DNA from: Candidatus Eiseniibacteriota bacterium
GTDB lineage: Bacteria > Eisenbacteria > RBG-16-71-46 > JABDJR01 > JAWXBZ01
Length of the DNA: 15,249 nt
Assembly: GCA_034440375.1 (NCBI GenBank)
Contig: JAWXBZ010000108.1
Location: forward strand, 1-15,249
Direction: 5' to 3'
Shown here piece after piece: positions 5,135 through 15,249 of this stretch. Under the pieces are notes generated by a model, which was not told the origin of the DNA, did no database searches, and was given only the letters and a program-made list of their open reading frames with translations. Made by a program: the position numbers and the translations under genes. Every line of letters starts with the position of its first letter. Position 1 is the stretch's first letter.

Positions 5135-6055
5135 GTGAAGACGTGCCACGTGTCGGCGGAGCAGGCCGGACGAATCGACCTTGTCGTGGCGGCTCTGACC
5201 GGTCTGTCGCGGACCTGGATCAAGGGACTGTTCGACCATGACTGCGTCACTCGGAACGGCCGCCCGGCGCCGAATCCCGGGGAACGGGTCGAGGTCGGCG
5301 ATGCGGTGGAGGTTTGCTTCGACCCGCACACGCGTTATCGGGAGAAGCCCCGCGTGCGCGTGGACCCGGCCTTCCAGGTGCTGTACGAGGACGAGCACAT
5401 CATCGTTGTCGAGAAGGCGGCCTTCGTGCTGACCGTGCCAACCCAGGATGGGGAGACCGACACGCTGGTGCAGCGGGTGGGGCGCTACCTGGGCCGGGGT
5501 GGCCCGGAACACCGGGTAACGGTGGTGCAGCGGCTCGATCATGGAACGTCGGGGGTCATGGTCTTTGCGATCACCGAGGCGGCGGCCACCGAGCTCATCG
5601 ACCAGTTCAAGCGTCATGCGCCGGCCCGCGAGTACGTGGCGCTCGTCTCCGGGCTGGTCAAGGAAGATCGCGGCACGATCGAGAGCCGACTGGCCACCAA
5701 TCGAAGGCTCTCACGATATTCCACACACGGCGAAGATGGCGAACGGGCCGTGACGCATTTCGAGGTCGAGGAGCGCTTCCAGGATGTCACGCGAGTCCGG
5801 GTGAAGCTGGAGACGGGCCGCCGGAATCAGATCCGCGTGCACTTCGCCGAGGCGGGGCATCCGGTACTCGGCGATACGCGCTACCGGCCGGAACTGGCCC
5901 GCCATCCGCGCTGGCGCTCGCGCCGCCAGGCGCTGCATGCGGCGGTGCTTGGTTTTACACATCCGGTCTCGCGCCAACGGATGCGTTTCGAGTCGCCGCT
6001 GCCGCCGGAATTCGGCGCGTTTACCGGGGGCGAGAAGAAACGGGGCGCGAAATGA
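5135..6055 (+). CDS. RluA-family (RluD/RluC-like) 23S rRNA pseudouridine synthase with an N-terminal S4 domain
   Basis: GTG start; S4-like RIDLVVAALTGLSRT; VLYEDEHIIVVEKAA; catalytic motif QRLDHGTSG (canonical HRLDxxTSG); REYVALV; LETGRRNQIRVHFAEAGHPVLGDTRY; RQALHA. Confidence 0.93.
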   Translation: MKTCHVSAEQAGRIDLVVAALTGLSRTWIKGLFDHDCVTRNGRPAPNPGERVEVGDAVEVCFDPHTRYREKPRVRVDPAFQVLYEDEHIIVVEKAAFVLTVPTQDGETDTLVQRVGRYLGRGGPEHRVTVVQRLDHGTSGVMVFAITEAAATELIDQFKRHAPAREYVALVSGLVKEDRGTIESRLATNRRLSRYSTHGEDGERAVTHFEVEERFQDVTRVRVKLETGRRNQIRVHFAEAGHPVLGDTRYRPELARHPRWRSRRQALHAAVLGFTHPVSRQRMRFESPLPPEFGAFTGGEKKRGAK

Positions 6056-7257
6056 TGCCGCCCCCCCGCAAGTCGCCGCATCCCCCGGCGGTTGTGCTTG
6101 GCCTGACGACGAATGGACTTTCGTTCGTGCGCAGCCTCGGGCGACGCGGCATTCCCGTGACGATGCTCGAAACACTCTCCTGGCATCCGGGCATGACCAG
6201 CCGCTACGGAGTCCCCTGTCCCGTGCCCGACATCACCGAGCAACCCGATGCCTGGCTCACCGCGCTCGACGCGATCGCCCGCCGGGACGAACGCCCCGTG
6301 CTGATCGCCACCGGGGACGAACACATCCTGTTCGTCTCCCGTCACCGGGAATACCTGGAGCGGCACTTTCGCTTTCGCATCCCCGCAGCCGGACTTGCGG
6401 AAGCACTCTGCGACAAGCAGGCCCAGTACGAGCGGCTTCTCGACCTGGACTGTCCCCTGCCGAAGACAGCCTTCGTAACGCCTGGTCAGGCCGATTTGTT
6501 CGAGTTCGCCGAGCGGACCATCGGCTTCCCGTGTGTAGTGAAACCAAGCTTCTCCCACCTATGGCGCCGCCGTGCCACCGGCGTGAAGCTGCGGCTGGCT
6601 CACACCCCGGATGCGCTTCGCGCGGCGCTCCGCGACATGGTCGAAACCGGCGAGCCTTTCGTCCTGCAGGAGTTCATCCCCGGCGGCGACGACGCCATCC
6701 ACTGCTACCTGGCGCACTACGGTGAGGATGGCCGCCCATTGGCCTCCATGACGAAGCAGAAACTCCGCCAGAATCCGCCCCGTTGTGGCAACGGCGCGTT
6801 CCAGATATCCACGCACAACCCGGAAGTCACCGCCCTTTCTGAACAGATCCTCGGGCGACTTGCTTATCAGGGCCTCGTGGCCACCGAATTCAAGTGGGAT
6901 GTTCGGGACTCCCGCTACAAGTTGATGGAGATCAACCCTCGCAGCGTCTCCGGCAATCAGCTTGCTGTTGACGTCGATGTTGATCTGCCGTTCGTCTATT
7001 ACCGCGATGTGCTGGGCCTGCCGGTCCCCACGATCGCCTCCTACCGGTCAAACGTGAAGTACCTCCACCTGGGGTGGGATCTGCAGGCCTTCCTCATCGA
7101 ACATCGCGCCGGTCGAATGCCTCTTTTCCCCTGGTTTCGATCGCTGCTGGGAGCGCGCTCCTTCGCGTTGTTCAACTGGCGCGATCCGCGACCCTTCCTG
7201 ACCTATGCGTGGGAGGGTCTTCGCAGTTTCCGGTCGGCACAAAGGTTCCCGTCCTGA
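6052..7257 (+). CDS. ATP-grasp carboxylate-amine ligase (D-aspartate-ligase-like), about 401 aa
   Basis: The real start is the ATG at 6052 overlapping the pseudouridine synthase stop (ATGA), or the next ATG at 6055, not 5314. Motifs: NGLSFVRSLGRRGI, VLIATGDE, LCDK..QY, IGFPCVVKPS, VLQEFIPGGD, EFKWD.RD..YKLMEINPR, DVDLP. Confidence 0.85.
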   Translation: MMPPPRKSPHPPAVVLGLTTNGLSFVRSLGRRGIPVTMLETLSWHPGMTSRYGVPCPVPDITEQPDAWLTALDAIARRDERPVLIATGDEHILFVSRHREYLERHFRFRIPAAGLAEALCDKQAQYERLLDLDCPLPKTAFVTPGQADLFEFAERTIGFPCVVKPSFSHLWRRRATGVKLRLAHTPDALRAALRDMVETGEPFVLQEFIPGGDDAIHCYLAHYGEDGRPLASMTKQKLRQNPPRCGNGAFQISTHNPEVTALSEQILGRLAYQGLVATEFKWDVRDSRYKLMEINPRSVSGNQLAVDVDVDLPFVYYRDVLGLPVPTIASYRSNVKYLHLGWDLQAFLIEHRAGRMPLFPWFRSLLGARSFALFNWRDPRPFLTYAWEGLRSFRSAQRFPS

Positions 7258-7928: not shown

Positions 7929-9740
7929 CTAATTCCCCACCAGCTCCTCGAACGCGTCCACATACTCCGCCAGCACCCCGAATGCCCGGTCCACCGGTTC
8001 CGATTGGGTCATGTCGACGCCGGCCCGCTTCAGCGCCTCGATCGGCGGCAGGCTGCCGCCGGCCGAAAGGAATTCGAGATAGGACTCGCGGGCACCGGTC
8101 TCGCCGGCCATGACGCGGGTGGCCAGGGCCTGGGCCGCGGCGATTCCGGTGGCATAAGTGAATACGTAGAAGTTCAGGTACATGTGGATCGGGAATTGTG
8201 CCCAGGTGATGCCGACGCGGTCCCGATCGATTTCCACGTCGGGCCCGAACGCCTCGCCGAAGTAACCTGACATCAGCTGGATCAGTTCATCCGTGCCGAC
8301 TCCCTGCCCCCTTTCCAGGCGCGAGTGGACCTCGAACTCGAATCGGGCCAGCGCCGGCATCAGGAACAGGTAGCGGTGGAGGTTGGCCATCGCCTCCTCC
8401 AGGATGGCCATCCGCATGGCCGGGTCTTTTTGTGTGTCGAGCAGATGCTTGCGGACCAGCGCCTGGTTGAAATTGCTGGCCACCTCCGCCACGAACTCGG
8501 TGTAATCGCAATAGGCCGGCGGCTGCGTCTTCCACGCCATCCAGGAATGCATCGAGTGGCCGATCTCGTGGGCCAGCGTCGAGAGGCCGAAGACATCGTT
8601 GTTGTAGGTCATGAAAATGAACGGATGAGTTCCGGGCTGGCCGCCGGAATAGGCGCCTCCCCGCTTGTTCTGGTTCGGCCGCCAATCGACCCAGCGCTCC
8701 TCGAAGATGCCGCGACGAAACGTACTCACGTACTCCTCGCCCAGCGGGGCCATGCCGTCACAGATCCAGTTGACCGACTTCTTCCAGTCGATGCCGGGTC
8801 GATCGCCGCCGATCGGCGCGGCCACATCGCACGGACGGAAGACATCCAGTTTCAGCGCCCGCTTCTTGATGGCCCAGTAGCGATGCCAGGTCGGAAGGTT
8901 CTTGCGATAGGCCGCGATCAGGTTGTGATACACCGCCACGGGCACTTCGCGGGGCTTCAAGCTGGCCTCGAGGGCGGACTCATATCGCCGCGCCCGTGAG
9001 ATGAAGACATTCTGACGCGCACCGGTCAGGAAGCAATCGGCGAACGTGTTGCGCAAGCCCAGGTAGCCGTCGGCATAGTTTTCCCAGGCAGAGCGACGCA
9101 GGGTGGCGTCGGCATCGGACAGGAGCATTCCGATTGATCCCTGCCCGATCGTGACGGGCTTGCCGGCCGAGGTGCACGCCGGGGCAAAGGTGAGATCGGC
9201 GTCGGATGCGGTGCCATGAACTCGGGTGGCGCTCTGGAACGGATCGGAGATGGCGCCCAGCAGTTCCTCGACATCAGAGGAACGAATATGAGGTTGACGA
9301 TCAAATACCCGGCGCGCCCACATCTCATAAAAGTGGAGTTTCGGCGTGGCGGCAATCCACCCGAGCACCGTGTCCCGGCCCAGAGCCAGAACCTCGGGCT
9401 CCGCAAAGGCCACCGCTTCGAGCATGCGCGCCCGAAGGCCCGCGCCCCGGTCATTGCGCTGCCGCCAGGAGGGATCGGCGGAATCGACATGATGCCCCAT
9501 CTGCCCATACACCGCCGCCCGCTCCACCCGCATCCGCAGCGCCCAGCTCTCCGCAAGCCACGCGGCCAGCACTTCCGGGCCTTCGCCGAGGCGCCCACTC
9601 CAGGCCCCGAGGGCATCCAGCGCGCCGGGCAGCGTGGCCACTTCGGCTTCCCACGCGGCCTCCGTGGGAAAAATGCTTTCCAGGTTCCAGCGGTCCGAGT
9701 CGGGTATCTCCGCTCGCGGCGGCGGGGCGGCGACGTTCAT
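7929..9740 (-). CDS. pepF: Oligoendopeptidase F (peptidase M3B), 603 aa
   Basis: GGAGG lies 5 nt before ATG 9740. N-terminal RAEIPDSDRWNLESIF; RWVD..PNQNKRGGAYS; Zn motif TLAHEIGHSMHS; FVAEVASNFN; HMYLNFYVFTYATG; GGS..PIEALKRAGVDM. Confidence 0.94.
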   Translation of the reverse strand: MNVAAPPPRAEIPDSDRWNLESIFPTEAAWEAEVATLPGALDALGAWSGRLGEGPEVLAAWLAESWALRMRVERAAVYGQMGHHVDSADPSWRQRNDRGAGLRARMLEAVAFAEPEVLALGRDTVLGWIAATPKLHFYEMWARRVFDRQPHIRSSDVEELLGAISDPFQSATRVHGTASDADLTFAPACTSAGKPVTIGQGSIGMLLSDADATLRRSAWENYADGYLGLRNTFADCFLTGARQNVFISRARRYESALEASLKPREVPVAVYHNLIAAYRKNLPTWHRYWAIKKRALKLDVFRPCDVAAPIGGDRPGIDWKKSVNWICDGMAPLGEEYVSTFRRGIFEERWVDWRPNQNKRGGAYSGGQPGTHPFIFMTYNNDVFGLSTLAHEIGHSMHSWMAWKTQPPAYCDYTEFVAEVASNFNQALVRKHLLDTQKDPAMRMAILEEAMANLHRYLFLMPALARFEFEVHSRLERGQGVGTDELIQLMSGYFGEAFGPDVEIDRDRVGITWAQFPIHMYLNFYVFTYATGIAAAQALATRVMAGETGARESYLEFLSAGGSLPPIEALKRAGVDMTQSEPVDRAFGVLAEYVDAFEELVGN

Positions 9741-9781
9741 GTGGACCTCCGGGTGGTGGTTCTCCTGCGGTTCGAGGGGGC

Positions 9782-9810
9782 ATTGTAGGTGATAGACTCG
9801 ACCCCGTGAA
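9782..9810 (-). promoter_or_regulatory. Putative sigma70-type promoter for pepF
   Basis: On the minus strand, TTCACG (9810-9805), a 17-nt spacer, then TACAAT (9787-9782), about 40 nt upstream of ATG 9740. This also argues against the track start at 9866. Confidence 0.5.
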
Positions 9811-9858
9811 CCTGGACTCGGCTTCGATGCTTGGAACCCGCCGTGCGCGGGAATTGCG

Positions 9859-10968
9859 ATGAGCACCGTCGAACCGCGAATTCAGGGTGAGGCCATTCAT
9901 TATCGGCTCTTTGAGGTCGGCTACGAGATCCAGCTCGACCACGCCGCCGAACTCCTGGCGTCGAACGCCCCGGAACGATTGCGGCCCCTGCGGGGCGAGG
10001 CCCAGGCCATCCAGATCGCGAATCCGCCGGTCACAGTCCTCCTCGGCAACGAAACCATCGTGGTGGATGGCCGGCCACGTCCGGCGGAGCTCTCGGCGCG
10101 CCTGTTCGATTTCGGCGTGGTGTCGCTGCGCGTACGGATCACGGCTCCGGCCGGAACTACCTGGGAGGAGTTTGCCGGGTTCGGCGAGGCCCTGCCTCCG
10201 GCGGAGGCCGATGCCCTGTTCGAGTCCTGGCGCGATCGACTGCTCGCGCGGATCCATGCCGCGATCACCCGGCCCAGCCGCAGCACGATCACCGAGGAGT
10301 ACACCATTTTCCGGGTGAATCGGCTCGAAGACGCCGCCGGGAATCCGTTCCAGCCGGACAAACTCGACGAACACGACCTCGCGCGATTGCTGCTGGGAGA
10401 GCGGAGGCCCCTCTGCCCGACGGCGCGGAAGGAGCTGATCTCGCCGCGGCTCTCCTACTTCGCCGACGACCTGACGGTCCTCACCTGGAGTGCCGGGCTC
10501 GTCGTGGAGCCGGCCATCGAGAACACCGACGTGCAGTATGTCCTCGAGTTCGCCAACGCCCAGCTTCTCGAGTTGCGGCACTACGACCATCTGCTCGACC
10601 AGGAACTGCCGCGGATCTACGGCGATGTTGTCGGGGCACGGCGGGCCTTCAAGATGCTGGGTCGCCGTTTCGGGCGTCTGCTCGGCAACATCCAGACCCG
10701 GGTGGCGGACGTGACGGAGTCGGTCGAGCGTGTCGAGAACTCATTGAAGGTGACCGACGACGTGTTCCTGGCCCGTGTGTACACGACCGCGCTCGACATC
10801 TTCCGCGGTCCCATCTGGCGGCGCGGTATCGACCGTAAAATGGGCCTCGTCCGGGATACCTACACGATGCTGAACGCCGAATCGCAGGCCCTGCGCACCG
10901 AGATCATGGAGTTGACCATCATCGGCTTGATCGCGCTGGAGATCGTGCTGGCCCTGTGGCGGGATTGA
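9859..10968 (+). CDS. RMD1/DUF155-like protein with a C-terminal membrane anchor (369 aa)
   Basis: Long ORF with GC3-rich codons. YRLFEVGYEIQL, RLFDFGVVSL, LEFANAQLLELRHYD, a long helical region, and a terminal MELTIIGLIALEIVLAL helix matching the E-x-x-II-x-LI-x-x-EI ending of RMD1/DUF155 proteins. Confidence 0.65.
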   Translation: MSTVEPRIQGEAIHYRLFEVGYEIQLDHAAELLASNAPERLRPLRGEAQAIQIANPPVTVLLGNETIVVDGRPRPAELSARLFDFGVVSLRVRITAPAGTTWEEFAGFGEALPPAEADALFESWRDRLLARIHAAITRPSRSTITEEYTIFRVNRLEDAAGNPFQPDKLDEHDLARLLLGERRPLCPTARKELISPRLSYFADDLTVLTWSAGLVVEPAIENTDVQYVLEFANAQLLELRHYDHLLDQELPRIYGDVVGARRAFKMLGRRFGRLLGNIQTRVADVTESVERVENSLKVTDDVFLARVYTTALDIFRGPIWRRGIDRKMGLVRDTYTMLNAESQALRTEIMELTIIGLIALEIVLALWRD

Positions 10969-10999: not shown

Positions 11000-12103
11000 T
11001 CAAACGCTGAATTTGAAGTGCAGCACATCCCCATCGGCCACGACGTAGTCCTTCCCCTCGATCCGGTACAGCCCCTTCTCGCGCGCCGCGGCCACCGAGC
11101 CGCATTCCAGCAGGTCCTTGTACGACACGGTTTCGGCCTTGATGAAGCCGCGCTCGAAGTCCGAGTGGATGACGCCCGCCGCCCTGGGGGCGGTGTCACC
11201 GGCGTGGATGGTCCAGGCACGGACTTCCTTTTCGCCGGCGGTGAAGTAGGTCGAGAGGCCCAGCAGGTGATAGGTGGAGCGGATCAGCGCGCCGATGCCG
11301 CTCTCCTCCACACCCAGCTCTCTCAGGAACGCCTCGGCTTCTTCCGGCTCAAGATCGACCAGGTCACTCTCGATCTGGGCGCTGATGACGACCGCCTCGC
11401 AATCCATGTGGGTCCGCACGTAGTCGCGCACCTTCATCACATGGGGATTCGTGTCGGCCGTGGCCAGATCGGATTCGCGTACGTTGCAGGCGAAGATGGT
11501 TCGCTTGTCCGACAGGAGGAAGAACGGCAGCGACACGGCGCGTTCCTCGGGAGTCAGCTCCACGGTCAGCGCGGGTCGACCGGCCTCCAGGGACGTTTCG
11601 ATCCGGGCCAGCACGGAATCCTCGGCCACCGCGGTCTTGTCGCCTTTCTTGATGTCGCGGCCGAGTCGCTCACGTCGCTTCTGAACGGACTCGAGATCCG
11701 CCAGCATCAATTCGGTGTTGATGATCTCGATGTCACGCACCGGATCGATGGTTCCGGTCACGTGGTGGATGTCCTCGTCCTCGAAACAACGAACCACCTG
11801 GACGATGGCATCCACTTCACGGATGTGGGTCAAAAACTTGTTGCCCAACCCCTCACCCTGGCTGGCCCCCTTGACCAGGCCCGCGATATCGACAAACTCG
11901 ACCGCGGCCGGAATGACGACATTGGTCCTGGCGATCCGCTGCAGTTCAGCCAGCCGTGAGTCCGGCACCGTGACGATGCCCACGTTGGGGTCAATCGTGC
12001 AGAACGGATAATTGGCCGCCTGCGCCTTGCGGGTGCGGGTGACGGCATTGAACAAGGTGGACTTGCCCACGTTCGGAAGTCCGACGATTCCAGCTCTCAA
12101 CAT
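11000..12103 (-). CDS. ychF: Ribosome-binding Obg-family ATPase YchF
   Basis: [48 protein letters not shown], an NxxE-type G4 (NVRE), [33 protein letters not shown] and a TGS C-terminus. Confidence 0.98.
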
Positions 12104-12178
12104 GGTGGTATGAGCCTCGTTGGGTGATTCATGGATAAGGAAACGCGCGGGCCCGGCGGGAATCTCAAGATACGATGA

Positions 12179-12265
12179 CTGGAAGCCCCATTTGTACCCC
12201 CAAAAGCGTGTCAGCTTACCGGGCTTTTGTCGACAACGCCAGAGGGCACCGCCGCTGGAAGCCCC
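12179..12265. repeat. 11-bp direct repeat CTGGAAGCCCC (12179-12189 and 12255-12265) in the intergenic region between ychF and the pspA operon
   Basis: Two identical 11-mers whose starts are 76 nt apart. GGGCTT at 12221-12226 is a partial inverted copy between them. Confidence 0.6.
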
Positions 12266-12299
12266 TAAACTTCCGGGTGACCGGGGCGTAGGCGCTCAG

Positions 12300-12341
12300 G
12301 GGCATCCAAGCTGCTACAATCCCGCGCGAACTCCATGGAGG
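12300..12341 (+). promoter_or_regulatory. Putative promoter and RBS of the pspA-like operon
   Basis: Extended -10 TGCTACAAT at 12312-12320 overlaps a sigma54-like GG-N10-GC element, GGGCATCCAAGCTGCT (12300-12315). GGAGG at 12337-12341 precedes ATG 12352. Confidence 0.5.
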
Positions 12342-12351
12342 GAATCGTCTG

Positions 12352-13023
12352 ATGGCGAAGAAGTGGTACGACTTTTTCGTCGTGACCGACCGCGCGGAAA
12401 CGACGGCCGCACCGAAGGGGCCGCCGGGCCCGGAAGCGCCATCGCCCCCCCGGCGGGCCGTCGACCTGGTGACCGATGCGGCCGCGGAAACGACCTTCGA
12501 CGGGCCGGTTACGGACTCGGTCGGGTTCGACGAAATCTACACGGCGGCGCGCATCGCCCTGCCGCCACACGGCTATACGATCCTGAAGGTGGCTGAGATG
12601 CTGGGGAGTGAACATCTCCGCGAGTTGCCGCCCGATGTGAAGAAGAAATCGATCCTCGTGGCACTCGACGCCGCGGGGGTGTCGGTGGACGGCATCGTGG
12701 AGGATGCCGTGCAGCGCGACAGGGCCCTGGATACGTACGAACGCCTGCTCCAGAAAAATCTGGACGAGCTGCGGATCACTCACGAAGGGGACAACCGCCG
12801 GATCGAGGCGGAGATCGAGAGCCGCCTTGCGGAATTGCGGGCGCAGCTCGAGGCCAATCGTGGAAAGCTCCGTGACGAAAAGAGCCGACTTGACGAATGG
12901 CGCGCCAGGAAGCGCGTGGAGGAAGCCGGGATTGCGGAGGCCGTGAGCTATTTCGTGACGGAGAATCCCGTTTCGACGACCGACCAACACCCTACCCACA
13001 CTGGAGGCGATCATGTTCGCTAG
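12352..13023 (+). CDS. Hypothetical helical/coiled-coil protein (223 aa), first gene of the pspA-like operon
   Basis: RBS present and GC3-rich codons. Aromatic-basic N-terminus (MAKKWYDFFVV), Pro-rich linker, globular core (FDEIY..ARI...GYTILKVAEML...ILVALDAAGV) and a long E/R/L heptad region. Overlaps the next gene by 11 nt. Confidence 0.85.
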   Translation: MAKKWYDFFVVTDRAETTAAPKGPPGPEAPSPPRRAVDLVTDAAAETTFDGPVTDSVGFDEIYTAARIALPPHGYTILKVAEMLGSEHLRELPPDVKKKSILVALDAAGVSVDGIVEDAVQRDRALDTYERLLQKNLDELRITHEGDNRRIEAEIESRLAELRAQLEANRGKLRDEKSRLDEWRARKRVEEAGIAEAVSYFVTENPVSTTDQHPTHTGGDHVR

Positions 13024-13759
13024 GCTTTCCCGATTATTTCGCGCCTGGATGGGGTTCTTTATCTCGAAGGCGGAAGACGCGGAAATCATGCTCCAGGACG
13101 CCATCGAGGAGATGCGAACCACCATGCCGAGGCTGAACGCGGTGCTCGTGGCGACAAGGGCCACGGTGCTGCGCCTCGAAGAGGAACGGGATTCGCTGGT
13201 CCGGCAGGATCAGAACCTGTCCGCCTCGATCCAGGCCGCCCTGCGGGACGGTTCGGCGGCGGCGCGCAGCGTGGCCGAAGAGGACGCCTTCCAGCTTCAG
13301 CAACTCCGGGCGGACCTGAAGAGCACCCAGGATCAGCTCCTCGCGGCAACCAACGCCCACGACTCGGCCAGTGTTTCCGTCGAGGCCCTGAAGACCAAGC
13401 TGAAGGCCAAGATCGAAACGTGCCAGAAGGCGCTGAGGGAGCGCCAGAAGTCGCTCGTGATGAAGAAAGCCGCCGACGCCATCGTCGAGCTTCAGACGTA
13501 CGGGGTGGCCGCAACGGCCGACAAGTTCCTCGAGCAGATCAAGCAGGAAGCGGCGGAATCGAAGGCCGCCGTCGAGGTCGCCACCGGATCGATCGACATG
13601 GCCACGATCGAACGCGAACGGACATCCCGGAAGCTGAAGGCGGCCGGAATCCTGCACCAGTTCGAGGTGGAGATGGGCCTGGCGAAGCCCACGGCGATCA
13701 GCGAAACGCCCGCGGCGCCGACGGTCGGCCCCCGCACCGCCGAAAAGCAGGGCTCATAG
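13013..13759 (+). CDS. pspA: PspA/IM30 (Vipp1, ESCRT-III superfamily) protein, 248 aa
   Basis: GGAGG at 13003-13007. Amphipathic N-helix MFARLSRLFRAWMGFFISKAEDAEIML.DAIEEM (compare PspA F.R...EDP..ML...I.EM), helical hairpin turning at AALRDG...A, then FLEQIKQEAAESKA, C-terminal helix ILHQFEVEMGL and a flexible tail. Confidence 0.88.
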   Translation: MFARLSRLFRAWMGFFISKAEDAEIMLQDAIEEMRTTMPRLNAVLVATRATVLRLEEERDSLVRQDQNLSASIQAALRDGSAAARSVAEEDAFQLQQLRADLKSTQDQLLAATNAHDSASVSVEALKTKLKAKIETCQKALRERQKSLVMKKAADAIVELQTYGVAATADKFLEQIKQEAAESKAAVEVATGSIDMATIERERTSRKLKAAGILHQFEVEMGLAKPTAISETPAAPTVGPRTAEKQGS

Positions 13760-13766
13760 CGCCCCG

Positions 13767-14660
13767 ATGTCGCCAGACCGGGATCAGGATGACGAGTCGG
13801 CCGGTTCGATTCTCCGCGAGCTGATTCTCAACCAGTACCAGGCCATCGTCCTGGCCGGCACGACGCTGGCCTCGGTCCTGACTCTGAATCCGATGCCGCT
13901 GCTTCTGTGGCTTGGTTCGGAACTCGTTTTGCTTCCGATCCTGGATTCCGGACCACTCCGCCGTCTCGTCTCCCGACGACGCCGCGAGAGGGCCCGCCGC
14001 GGCTCACAGTCCCGCCGGAAGCAGCTGATCGCCTCGTTCGGTCCCGACTACGCCCGGCGGTTCGCCGCCATGGAGGGAGTCTGCCGTCAGATCGAATCGA
14101 ACTACCAGGGGCTGCACGGAATTTCCCGGGCCTACCTGTCCGAACAGCGCGGCAAGCTCGATCTGATCCTGGACAGTTGCCTGCAACGAATGTCGGCCCT
14201 GCAGCGCTACGAGCGGACGCTGACCAAACGGGCTCCCGACCGGATCGAATCGGAGATCGTCGGATTGGGACAGGAACTGGCTGAGCCTGGGCTTAACGAA
14301 CGGGCGCGGACGGCCATCGGAAAAAATCTCGAGCTCAAGAAGCGCCTCCTCCAGTCCTACGCGGAGGCCGAGGGAACGATGAGGGCGCTCTCGACCGAAC
14401 TGGACTCGATGGCTTCGCTCCTGGAGGTGCTGCTCCAGAGTTCCCTTTCGATGCGCGATCCGACAGCCATCTCGGAGGAACTGGACACGATCGTGCGCCA
14501 GTCGGAAGATTCCGGGCGTGTCGTCCGCGAGATGGAAACGCTGCTGCGTGAGGGCGTGACCGACTGGGAGGTCGATGCGCCGGAACACGAGGCCGGGCCG
14601 GCAACTCCCGGCAAAACAGCCGCCGCCGACCGGGCGCGGCGGAAGGTGACGGAGCGTTGA
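13767..14660 (+). CDS. Hypothetical membrane-anchored coiled-coil protein (297 aa)
   Basis: Starts 7 nt after the pspA stop. N-terminal hydrophobic hairpin (AIVLAGTTLASVLTL-NPMP-LLLWLGSELVLLPIL), a strongly Arg-rich juxtamembrane segment (RRLVSRRRRERARRGSQSRRK), then long amphipathic helices. Confidence 0.85.
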   Translation: MSPDRDQDDESAGSILRELILNQYQAIVLAGTTLASVLTLNPMPLLLWLGSELVLLPILDSGPLRRLVSRRRRERARRGSQSRRKQLIASFGPDYARRFAAMEGVCRQIESNYQGLHGISRAYLSEQRGKLDLILDSCLQRMSALQRYERTLTKRAPDRIESEIVGLGQELAEPGLNERARTAIGKNLELKKRLLQSYAEAEGTMRALSTELDSMASLLEVLLQSSLSMRDPTAISEELDTIVRQSEDSGRVVREMETLLREGVTDWEVDAPEHEAGPATPGKTAAADRARRKVTER

Positions 14661-15249
14661 GCGATCCGATCGACGGTTACCCGGACTGGGCCAGGAAACT
14701 GGCACACGGCATCCGCGCGCGGCTGGGCAATGCCTTCATCCTTCACGGCAATACGCACGACCTCGTGGCGGCGCCCCCGTCCGACGCGACATCCGGCGCG
14801 CCGCGCTTCGTGCCGCTGACCGGCTTCCTGGCCGAGCAGGTCTTCGGTCGGCGTGACGTCGTCATCGAGTACCAGCGCGCCAACGGGGCCGTGTTTCACA
14901 CCCGCGAATCGCACCGGCTCTTTAACGAGTGCCTCTCCTCGGTTGATGCCGTTCACGGCACGGACTACGCCCGGTCGATGCCGAGGGATCCGGCCACGTT
15001 CTGCTCGTTGCTCGACTCGTTCCTGAAGCAGATCGTCCATCGCGAGGCACCCCCCGGCGTGGCGGTACTCTTTCCATGGGCCGAGACGCTCCTGCCGGAA
15101 TCAGCCGGCGAGGCAGGCGCCGAAGACCGGGCGGTGCGGGTCTTCTTTCAGAAATGGTCCACCGATCCCAGCCTCCTCGCCGCCAATGTCACGTTTGTCC
15201 TGATGACCGAGAACCTGGCGGACCTGAGCACGCGCATGGTCCGCTCGCC
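14657..15249 (+). CDS. Probable AAA+ ATPase, N-terminal degenerate AAA-like domain; continues beyond the window
   Basis: Absent from the ORF track. TTG 14657 overlaps the upstream TGA (TTGA), with AAGGTGA at 14643-14649. The frame is open for 197 codons to the edge: MSDPIDGYPDWARKLAHGIRARLGNAFILHGNTHDLV...FLAEQVFGRRDVVIEYQRANG...MPRDP...GVAVLFPWAETLLP...EDRAVRVFFQKWSTDPSLLAANVTFVLMTENLADLSTRMVRS. The pattern resembles the inactive N-terminal domain of tandem bacterial AAA ATPases. Intact Walker motifs are not in the window. Confidence 0.72.
   Translation, partial: MSDPIDGYPDWARKLAHGIRARLGNAFILHGNTHDLVAAPPSDATSGAPRFVPLTGFLAEQVFGRRDVVIEYQRANGAVFHTRESHRLFNECLSSVDAVHGTDYARSMPRDPATFCSLLDSFLKQIVHREAPPGVAVLFPWAETLLPESAGEAGAEDRAVRVFFQKWSTDPSLLAANVTFVLMTENLADLSTRMVRS

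Follow-up and report, generated by a model that had tools for sequence, protein, structure and literature searches.

At its 3' end, a 15,249-nt stretch of DNA from Candidatus Eiseniibacteriota bacterium, which is the whole of contig JAWXBZ010000108.1 (C108 in our analysis; hereafter the window), carries a bacterial operon in which a PspA protein is encoded together with membrane partners and a two-domain AAA motor of its own. We found that this operon is real and conserved. PspA and Vipp1 are proteins of the ESCRT-III superfamily that polymerize on membranes. The best-supported reading of the operon is that the AAA protein, anchored at the membrane by the third gene product (g3), uses ATP to remodel PspA polymers; it draws on synteny, a shared phyletic pattern, intact threading motifs and a subfamily-specific PspA tail. 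Judged from sequence, this reading falls a little short of an even chance. The pairing of PspA with a tandem AAA protein has already been described in silico, and the compact form studied here, with an upstream gene (g1), an amine oxidase and a protein combining a solute-binding protein (SBP) domain with LysM, is an added variant of that theme.

The four genes lie on the plus strand and are tightly packed, with the junctions claimed in an earlier note on this sequence. The listing of open reading frames (ORFs) places g1 (223 aa), which has no Pfam or NCBIfam family, at 12352..13023, where it overlaps the gene of the 248-aa PspA/IM30 homologue (13013..13759) by 11 nt. A 7-nt gap separates PspA from g3 (13767..14660; 297 aa), a predicted hydrophobic hairpin and helical bundle in the AlphaFold model, and g3 is followed by the AAA gene (14657..15249), whose TTG start overlaps the g3 stop in a 4-nt TTGA overlap. 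Only the start of the AAA protein is contained in the window (197 aa, 14657-15247, open to 15249; full length ∼582 aa); the window is the whole contig, and the fourth gene is therefore cut by the assembly. Shine-Dalgarno-like motifs precede PspA (GGAGG, 13002-13006) and the AAA gene (AGGTGA, 14643-14649), and no clear motif of this type was seen ahead of g3.

Gene order was examined by a pattern scan with one genome per species, which gave 113 AAA relatives; the best 80 loci were classified with profiles of the four proteins, built from hand-checked alignments and without cross-matches between families. The earlier note had staked its reading in part on conservation of the four-gene order, and the order g1-PspA-g3-AAA was indeed present in 26 of the 80 related loci, with 7 more cut by contig ends and consistent with it. 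PspA and g3-AAA were separated by a 3.4-3.7 kb insert, without g1, in 21 loci; the insert form also occurred once with g1 in front (L051) and twice, in planctomycete-labelled loci, with g1 after the AAA gene. Single loci had PspA-g3-AAA without g1 and g3-AAA-PspA, g3 was present and not adjacent in 4, and the AAA gene stood alone in 7 loci with at least 3 kb of upstream sequence and in 10 with sequence too short to judge. That these four families recur in one and the same order is far more than chance would give. The proposed adaptor, g1, is not always present: 21 of the 24 insert-type loci lack g1, and its position changes in other loci. In L051 the inserted genes code for an OmpA-domain protein, a weakly matched permease and an ATP-binding cassette (ABC) ATPase, and the inserts of three class-level relatives, read by eye, have the same content (ABC importer type). 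No ABC permease or ATPase gene lies between PspA and g3 in the window, which thus has the compact form as opposed to the long one.

Among the 63 loci with enough sequence, PspA was encoded on the same strand as the AAA gene in 54 and g3 in 56. Of the 63 loci holding g3, 59 have it no more than 300 nt from the AAA gene; therefore, g3 and AAA form the tightest pair, and g1 and PspA behave as a second block. Two further layouts fit these blocks: G047 (L103, G047:C2 4629-9048) has the permuted order g3-AAA-g1-PspA, and in G124 (L101, G124:C81 5559-6985) g1-PspA is followed by 1.5 kb without a g3 or AAA match and then by the contig end. Frame-split operon genes were observed in L021, L023, L029, L036, L037, L039, L040, L042, L043, L048 and L053, mostly on long contigs and in one series of metagenome-assembled genomes (MAGs), and are likely assembly indel errors rather than pseudogenes. 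The closest copies of the operon genes (73-81% identity) are labelled as several phyla, mostly Acidobacteriota/Vicinamibacterales, and the organism's own phylum was represented by 206 species representatives in the set searched; the scattered labels reflect either unreliable labelling or movement of the operon between lineages. When 41 related genomes were searched with the N-terminal part of the AAA protein and with the profiles of g3 and of the PspA subfamily, each search matched the same five genomes, which represent three families and are not independent events.

The assignment of the second gene to PspA/IM30 was confirmed by a PF04012 match over residues 2-216 (E 7.2e-13, 49.1 bits against a cut-off of 33.9), and this PspA is the only PF04012 match in its own genome, which is 93.66% complete. 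Its N-terminal helix is amphipathic (aa 1-18, nt 13013-13066, hydrophobic moment 0.50), a motif kept in 27 relatives. At the other end of the protein, partly past the stretch matched by Pfam, lies a C-terminal tail with the pattern L..F....G(L/I)..P (aa ∼210-226, nt 13640-13690). The tail is conserved in all 27 aligned members of the subfamily, with F217 and G222 invariant, and is common to the compact and long operon forms. The conserved tail is specific to the AAA-linked subfamily.

To read the AAA protein in full, we turned to G001, a sister genome of the same family with the four genes in the same order (identities of 58% for g1, 82% for PspA, 68% for g3 and 72% for the window part of AAA). 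The G001 protein is complete at 582 residues. The earlier note had placed an AAA+ protein at 14657, and this was right for the orthologue, in which an active second AAA domain (D2) is matched by PF00004 at residues 327-452 (E 2.6e-17); the window part holds only a degenerate first domain (D1). The 197 residues in the window had no Pfam match, which is a limit of the assembly and not a sign of a defective gene. They contain FILHGNTHDLV in place of a P-loop, and PY replaces the DE of Walker B. When the rest of the gene was sought in its own genome, only an FtsH-like match of 28% was found, which places the active second domain in an assembly gap.

The closest solved relatives of the G001 protein are the D2 domains of Cdc48/p97/AFG2/VAT (E 4e-29). 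NCBIfam ranked CDC48, PAN, FtsH and CdvC in that order, all far below their cut-offs, with 67.2 bits for Cdc48 and 31.7 bits for CdvC (cut-off 650), and Pfam gave no MIT domain match on the full orthologue. A profile of the first 290 residues, built from 25 relatives, matched Cdc48 D1 from Walker B to the lid (E 6.1e-5), followed by a weaker tail of other AAA domains; in the ESM Atlas the N-domain gave one weak AAA-named cluster (0.90). Throughout the family, the P-loop position of this domain reads F-x-L-H-G-N-x-x-D-L-V and the Walker B position P-Y or D-Y. The first domain is read as dead because its profile matches Cdc48 D1 and because a published description agrees. Taken together, the sequences indicate that the fourth protein is a tandem AAA protein with a dead D1, the only domain present in the window, and a Cdc48-like D2.

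The D2 motifs were counted in 59 aligned full-length AAA relatives. Walker B was DEAD in 58, and the W-x-G pore loop and the KRxGR arginines were present in all 59. The check for an active AAA module that the earlier note had proposed, made here in the orthologues, thus came out well for Walker B, the aromatic pore loop and the arginine fingers, and less well for the Walker A of the compact clade and for the sensor-1 asparagine, to which we return below.

The membrane partner g3 was modelled by AlphaFold from a 31-row alignment with a predicted local distance difference test score (pLDDT) of 81.1 and a predicted template modelling score of 0.69. It consists of an acidic N terminus, a hydrophobic helical hairpin (aa 24-62, nt 13836-13952; residues 12-59 in the model), an Arg-rich stretch and an all-helical bundle (aa 62-268). 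The hairpin is moderately hydrophobic, with a maximum Kyte-Doolittle-19 value of 1.47 and a pLDDT of about 60. The description of this protein as an anchor with two transmembrane (TM) spans is thus retained in part: the hairpin is probably a membrane anchor, and two full TM spans were not borne out. The helical bundle is annotated as cytoplasmic. No family was found for g3 in Pfam, NCBIfam or PADLOC; precomputed domains are absent from its 672 database relatives, and the best 120 are named hypothetical or have mismatched automatic names. Foldseek returned nothing against the PDB at E<=0.001, and the best VIA-align match, a designed repeat protein (Z 12.1, root-mean-square deviation 6.2 Å over 169 residues), is within the noise for helical bundles. 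We considered whether g3 is a hidden PspA or Snf7, and the comparisons gave no sign of it: hhalign gave a probability of 0.6% against PspA, Pfam (E<=0.1) matched none of 31 members to Snf7 or PspA, and ESCRT-III chains were absent among the fold matches listed.

In g1, an N-terminal MxKKWYxFFVV peptide is followed by a disordered Pro/Ala-rich linker, a helical head (aa 59-108), a helix of ∼92 residues (aa 112-203) and a C-terminal FVxENPI; the two peptides and the head are the parts conserved in the alignment. The AlphaFold model (AF2) has a pLDDT of 75.8 with a disordered N-terminal third, and the long helix is probably a coiled coil. A cut-off of E<=1e-3 gives 999 representatives of the family, and the ESM Atlas gave only unnamed clusters for g1. 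Fold searches returned nothing in Foldseek and, at best, coiled coils in VIA-align (Z 5.4), the small head being barely tested by them, and g1 was rejected as a hidden PspA (hhalign probability 0.9%). Some relatives are longer (350-530 aa) and carry the g1 domain at the C terminus, with a weak PilZ-like N-terminal domain in 7 of 14 scanned (P0299, P0319, P0333, P0346, P0365, P0374 and P0388), one of them above the Pfam cut-off. The neighbours of such fusions in the four loci scanned include a PF04185 phosphoesterase, NAD synthase, a DsbA-like protein and PhoU. The fusion was set aside as a guide to g1, since none of 37 metagenome loci of one fusion (L104-L140) lies near PspA, g3 or AAA; judged by these loci, cyclic di-GMP control of the operon has no direct support from the PilZ-g1 fusions.

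That the operon continues beyond the window, as had been claimed, was confirmed by the genes downstream of AAA. In G001, the AAA gene is followed by a flavin amine oxidase with a twin-arginine-type signal (SRRRFL), and the ORF after AAA is a PF01593 amine oxidase in 18 of 19 compact loci scanned. By local phmmer, the oxidase follows AAA in 23 of the 26 compact loci and an SBP/LysM protein follows the oxidase in 24, the contigs of the other two ending first. In the organism's own genome, contig C76 (L144) encodes at 3-1013 the last 336 aa of an amine oxidase with 73% identity to that of L015. The next gene, at 1010-2125, overlaps it by 4 nt, and its product of 371 residues combines a membrane anchor at the N terminus with SBP_bac_3 and a C-terminal LysM. 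From these sequences, C108 and C76 are very probably neighbours, with C76 continuing the operon across a gap of ∼1.9 kb, as estimated from orthologue lengths. Rather than the four genes first described, the unit most likely comprises six, g1-PspA-g3-AAA-amine oxidase-SBP/LysM, the last two adding periplasmic proteins. A putative wall-binding solute-binding protein is, by its domains, common to both forms of the operon, with LysM in the compact and OmpA in the long form.

These features can be assembled into a mechanism. PspA would use its amphipathic N-terminal helix to polymerize on the cytoplasmic membrane, at its inner face, and g3 would hold the AAA protein at the membrane. Using ATP hydrolysis in D2 and the aromatic pore loop, the AAA protein would pull PspA subunits, probably from their C-terminal tail, and this pulling would remodel or recycle the PspA polymer. 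The g1 protein and the two periplasmic proteins may modulate this activity or signal to it, in response to an amine or amino-acid-like solute or to the state of the cell wall. We infer every protein contact in this scheme, the direction of the reaction (disassembly over assembly) and the periplasmic input.

To ask which partner PspA might contact, we predicted a complex of three chains from G001-type orthologues, namely the full AAA protein, residues 60-272 of g3 and residues 150-248 of PspA, the last being the scored partner. The median score was 0.32, compared with 0.00 for the best of three controls and 0.00 when the AAA chain was replaced; contact agreement was at least 38% and partner pLDDT at least 42. 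The prediction gives a small push toward PspA contacting AAA rather than g3.

Several observations weigh against remodelling of PspA by this motor. The complex score itself is weak and yields no interface, and with this tool a pass at <=0.60 proves wrong more often than right, except where the guess was already likely. In the organism's own genome the active AAA domain is unassembled, so that its integrity is assumed from orthologues. The N and C halves of the AAA protein gave an hhalign probability of only 0.3% against each other, although their Walker B, sensor-1 and lid positions were aligned, and neither g1 nor g3 has a detectable relation to PspA or Snf7 or a known fold, so their roles in the scheme are guesses.

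A further point of this kind concerns catalysis. Canonical AAA domains have a Walker A of the form GxxxxGK[ST] and a sensor-1 Asn. In the compact clade (23 of 59 sequences) Walker A is GPVGSAK[TS], with Ala for the second Gly, as against the canonical form in the long clade (36 of 59), and the classical sensor-1 Asn position is S, C or A in the variants listed. ATPase activity is uncertain because of these two changes, and the compact-clade enzyme might be dead or very slow and link g3 with PspA as a nucleotide-gated scaffold. The Walker A variant, confined to the compact clade, and the altered sensor-1 position are what this proposal would explain. We regard it as quite improbable, since the same sequences, at 70-80% identity, strictly keep Walker B, the pore loop and both arginines, which argues for selection on catalysis.

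The last observations against PspA remodelling concern AAA relatives that have no PspA. In 7 of 63 informative loci, AAA relatives with 41-49% identity occur without PspA or g3, which means that PspA need not be the family's sole client. In Treponema-labelled MAGs (L054, L055, L056 and L070), the lone AAA gene directly follows a run of LPP20/LpoB-type lipoprotein genes, and in the Rhodothermales-labelled MAG L046 it follows D-aminopeptidase and aldolase genes. Such loci would be expected if g3 and AAA formed a membrane-bound unfoldase or extractase acting in the manner of Msp1, FtsH or Cdc48 on a client other than PspA, for example damaged or mislocalised envelope proteins, with PspA as a co-expressed stress effector that seals the membrane. 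The tight g3-AAA pairing, the ABC importer placed between PspA and g3-AAA in the long form, and the fact that the nearest solved relatives are general unfoldases also agree with a different client. Against it stand the presence of the PspA subfamily, g3 and AAA in the same 5 of 41 relatives, the conserved tail specific to the AAA-linked PspA subfamily, and the loss of the weak complex signal on replacement of the AAA chain. We consider a non-PspA client unlikely, while it is the most probable of the alternatives weighed here.

Remodelling by disassembly also has to be distinguished from assembly. The AAA protein might be an assembly or loading chaperone, holding PspA in the monomeric state or handing it to g3. 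The synteny evidence is shared between this proposal and PspA remodelling, and there is a precedent in PspF, known from E. coli, an AAA+ protein that a 2025 review describes as binding and restraining PspA in Proteobacteria (PMC7619361). The AAA protein of the operon has no part for DNA binding or sigma-54 interaction; it belongs to the classical AAA clade and keeps the W-x-G pore loop, a hallmark of threading enzymes; a loading function thus appears improbable. The most elaborate form of PspA remodelling would be a working bacterial counterpart of ESCRT-III/Vps4, in which a g3-anchored Cdc48-type unfoldase disassembles PspA through its C-terminal tail under the gating of the wall-tethered SBP and the exported amine oxidase, giving ligand-controlled, ATP-driven membrane repair. 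With all of these parts taken together, this form is rather unlikely, more so than PspA remodelling as such.

The surroundings of the operon bear on its regulation and on a possible role in defence. Upstream of g1 lies the divergent ychF gene (11000-12103, minus strand, YchF domains), and the 248-bp intergenic region (12104..12351) contains a Shine-Dalgarno-like GGAGGG at 12337-12342, 9 nt before the ATG of g1. Of the single promoter and ribosome-binding site proposed in the earlier note, the latter was recovered as this motif; for the former, a sigma-70 consensus scan of 11900-15249 gave 0 promoter-like sites, and a single promoter is presumed to lie in the 248-bp gap because this is the only candidate region. 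Pfam matches among the window ORFs identify housekeeping flanks (YchF, an M3 peptidase, ornithine cyclodeaminase and a Ser/Thr kinase with TPR repeats), and no mobile or defence genes were found among them. As stated in the earlier note, the PspB/C/F, LiaI/F/G and ClgR families are missing from the window: none was found in the 12 other ORFs scanned, the rest of the genome not having been searched. Among the remaining ORFs, two pairs of long ORFs overlap on opposite strands with no Pfam match in either member (9451-10590, minus, with 9859-10968, plus; and 793-1473, plus, with 856-1437, minus), and a 647-aa ORF (5314-7257, plus) has a sub-threshold match to PF15632 (Ter-operon-type ATP-grasp; 23.5 bits against a cut-off of 29.1).

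An anti-phage machine had also been suggested, and an anti-phage defence or abortive-infection module could account for the similarity of the AAA protein to IetA/IteA (PADLOC, E 5.4e-8). This similarity is of the generic AAA type (NCBIfam 27.9 bits against a cut-off of 510), PADLOC gave no other match, and the three other proteins had none below E 0.003. The housekeeping flanks, the standing of PspA as the only one in the genome, and the presence of periplasmic solute-binding and oxidase genes in the operon all speak against defence, which we regard as very improbable; the anti-phage suggestion was accordingly dropped.

A PspA-linked AAA motor of the threading type is a direct, testable candidate for the missing activity that disassembles bacterial PspA/Vipp1 polymers. 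With few parts, the organism's sole PspA and a defined tail that can be mutated, the compact form could suit reconstitution. In addition, the exported amine oxidase and the LysM-tethered SBP suggest that a cytoplasmic machine is tied to a signal or to chemistry outside the membrane. The 2025 review states that a Vps4-like regulator of ESCRT-III dynamics appears to be absent in bacteria (PMC7619361), a statement that would be overturned if a g3-anchored unfoldase does disassemble PspA. The interest of the operon would be high if such a function were shown and is moderate as it stands.

We found no experimental study of a PspA-tandem-AAA system in the literature searched. The closest description is the in silico work of Ravi et al. 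(mSystems 2024, PMC11237479), which reports that PspA is occasionally accompanied in bacteria by a protein with two AAA+ domains, of which the N-terminal copy is inactive, and that longer operons may combine PspA, Snf7 homologs with TM segments and the tandem ATPase with genes for an ABC ATPase, for a permease and for a PBPB-OmpA protein; these authors propose ATP-dependent membrane remodelling comparable to Snf7/VPS4. The caution in the earlier note that the gene neighbourhood might not be new was thus justified, PspA with an inactive-AAA/AAA protein being already present in that paper. The two systems share PspA with a tandem AAA whose first domain is degenerate, a membrane-anchored helical protein by the ATPase, and a periplasmic protein that binds solute and peptidoglycan, and the long form is present in class-level relatives. 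They differ in that the window form has no ABC permease or ATPase, has g1 in front, and encodes LysM rather than OmpA, downstream of AAA after an exported flavin amine oxidase. LysM, amine oxidase and PilZ are words that appear nowhere in the main text of PMC11237479. As for the Snf7 partner described there, g3 has a hydrophobic hairpin, and a likeness to Snf7 or PspA was undetected in it.

The canonical PspF-ABC, LiaIH and ClgR-PspAMN systems resemble the operon in having a PspA effector and a small membrane protein as the likely receptor; they differ in that the AAA protein of the operon is not an enhancer-binding protein and in the PspB/C/F, LiaI/F/G and ClgR families that none of the other window ORFs matches. 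Cdc48/p97/VAT/AFG2 share the tandem AAA arrangement, with D2 as the closest sequence match and D1 aligning with Cdc48 D1. Unlike Cdc48/p97, the AAA protein of the operon has no N-terminal double-psi barrel, has lost the nucleotide motifs of D1 and is shorter (∼582 aa, versus ∼800 aa for solved Cdc48/p97 chains). An ATP-driven chaperone acting on the C-terminal tail of a PspA-family polymer has been proposed for VIPP1 and chloroplast Hsp70 (bioRxiv 10.1101/2025.05.20.655051); the ATPase there is of another class and has no gene linkage, and the likeness is one of analogy only.

The comparison with cdvABC and Vps4 drawn in the earlier note holds for some parts of the operon and fails for others. 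Makarova et al. (2024, PMC10936438) found systems of vps4 plus ESCRT-III to be limited to the archaea and the eukaryotes, and in Popp et al. (2022, PMC9239133) AAA occurs in the reference list only. The AAA protein of the operon is not Vps4/CdvC-like and not a member of that family: it has no MIT match, it has two AAA domains rather than one, it is closer to Cdc48 D2, and its CdvC score falls far below the cut-off given above. What the operon shares with ESCRT-III/Vps4 of eukaryotes and Asgard archaea, and with CdvB/CdvC of the TACK archaea, is a polymer of the ESCRT-III superfamily encoded with a classical-clade AAA and a conserved C-terminal peptide on the polymer that could recruit the motor; the two may work alike.

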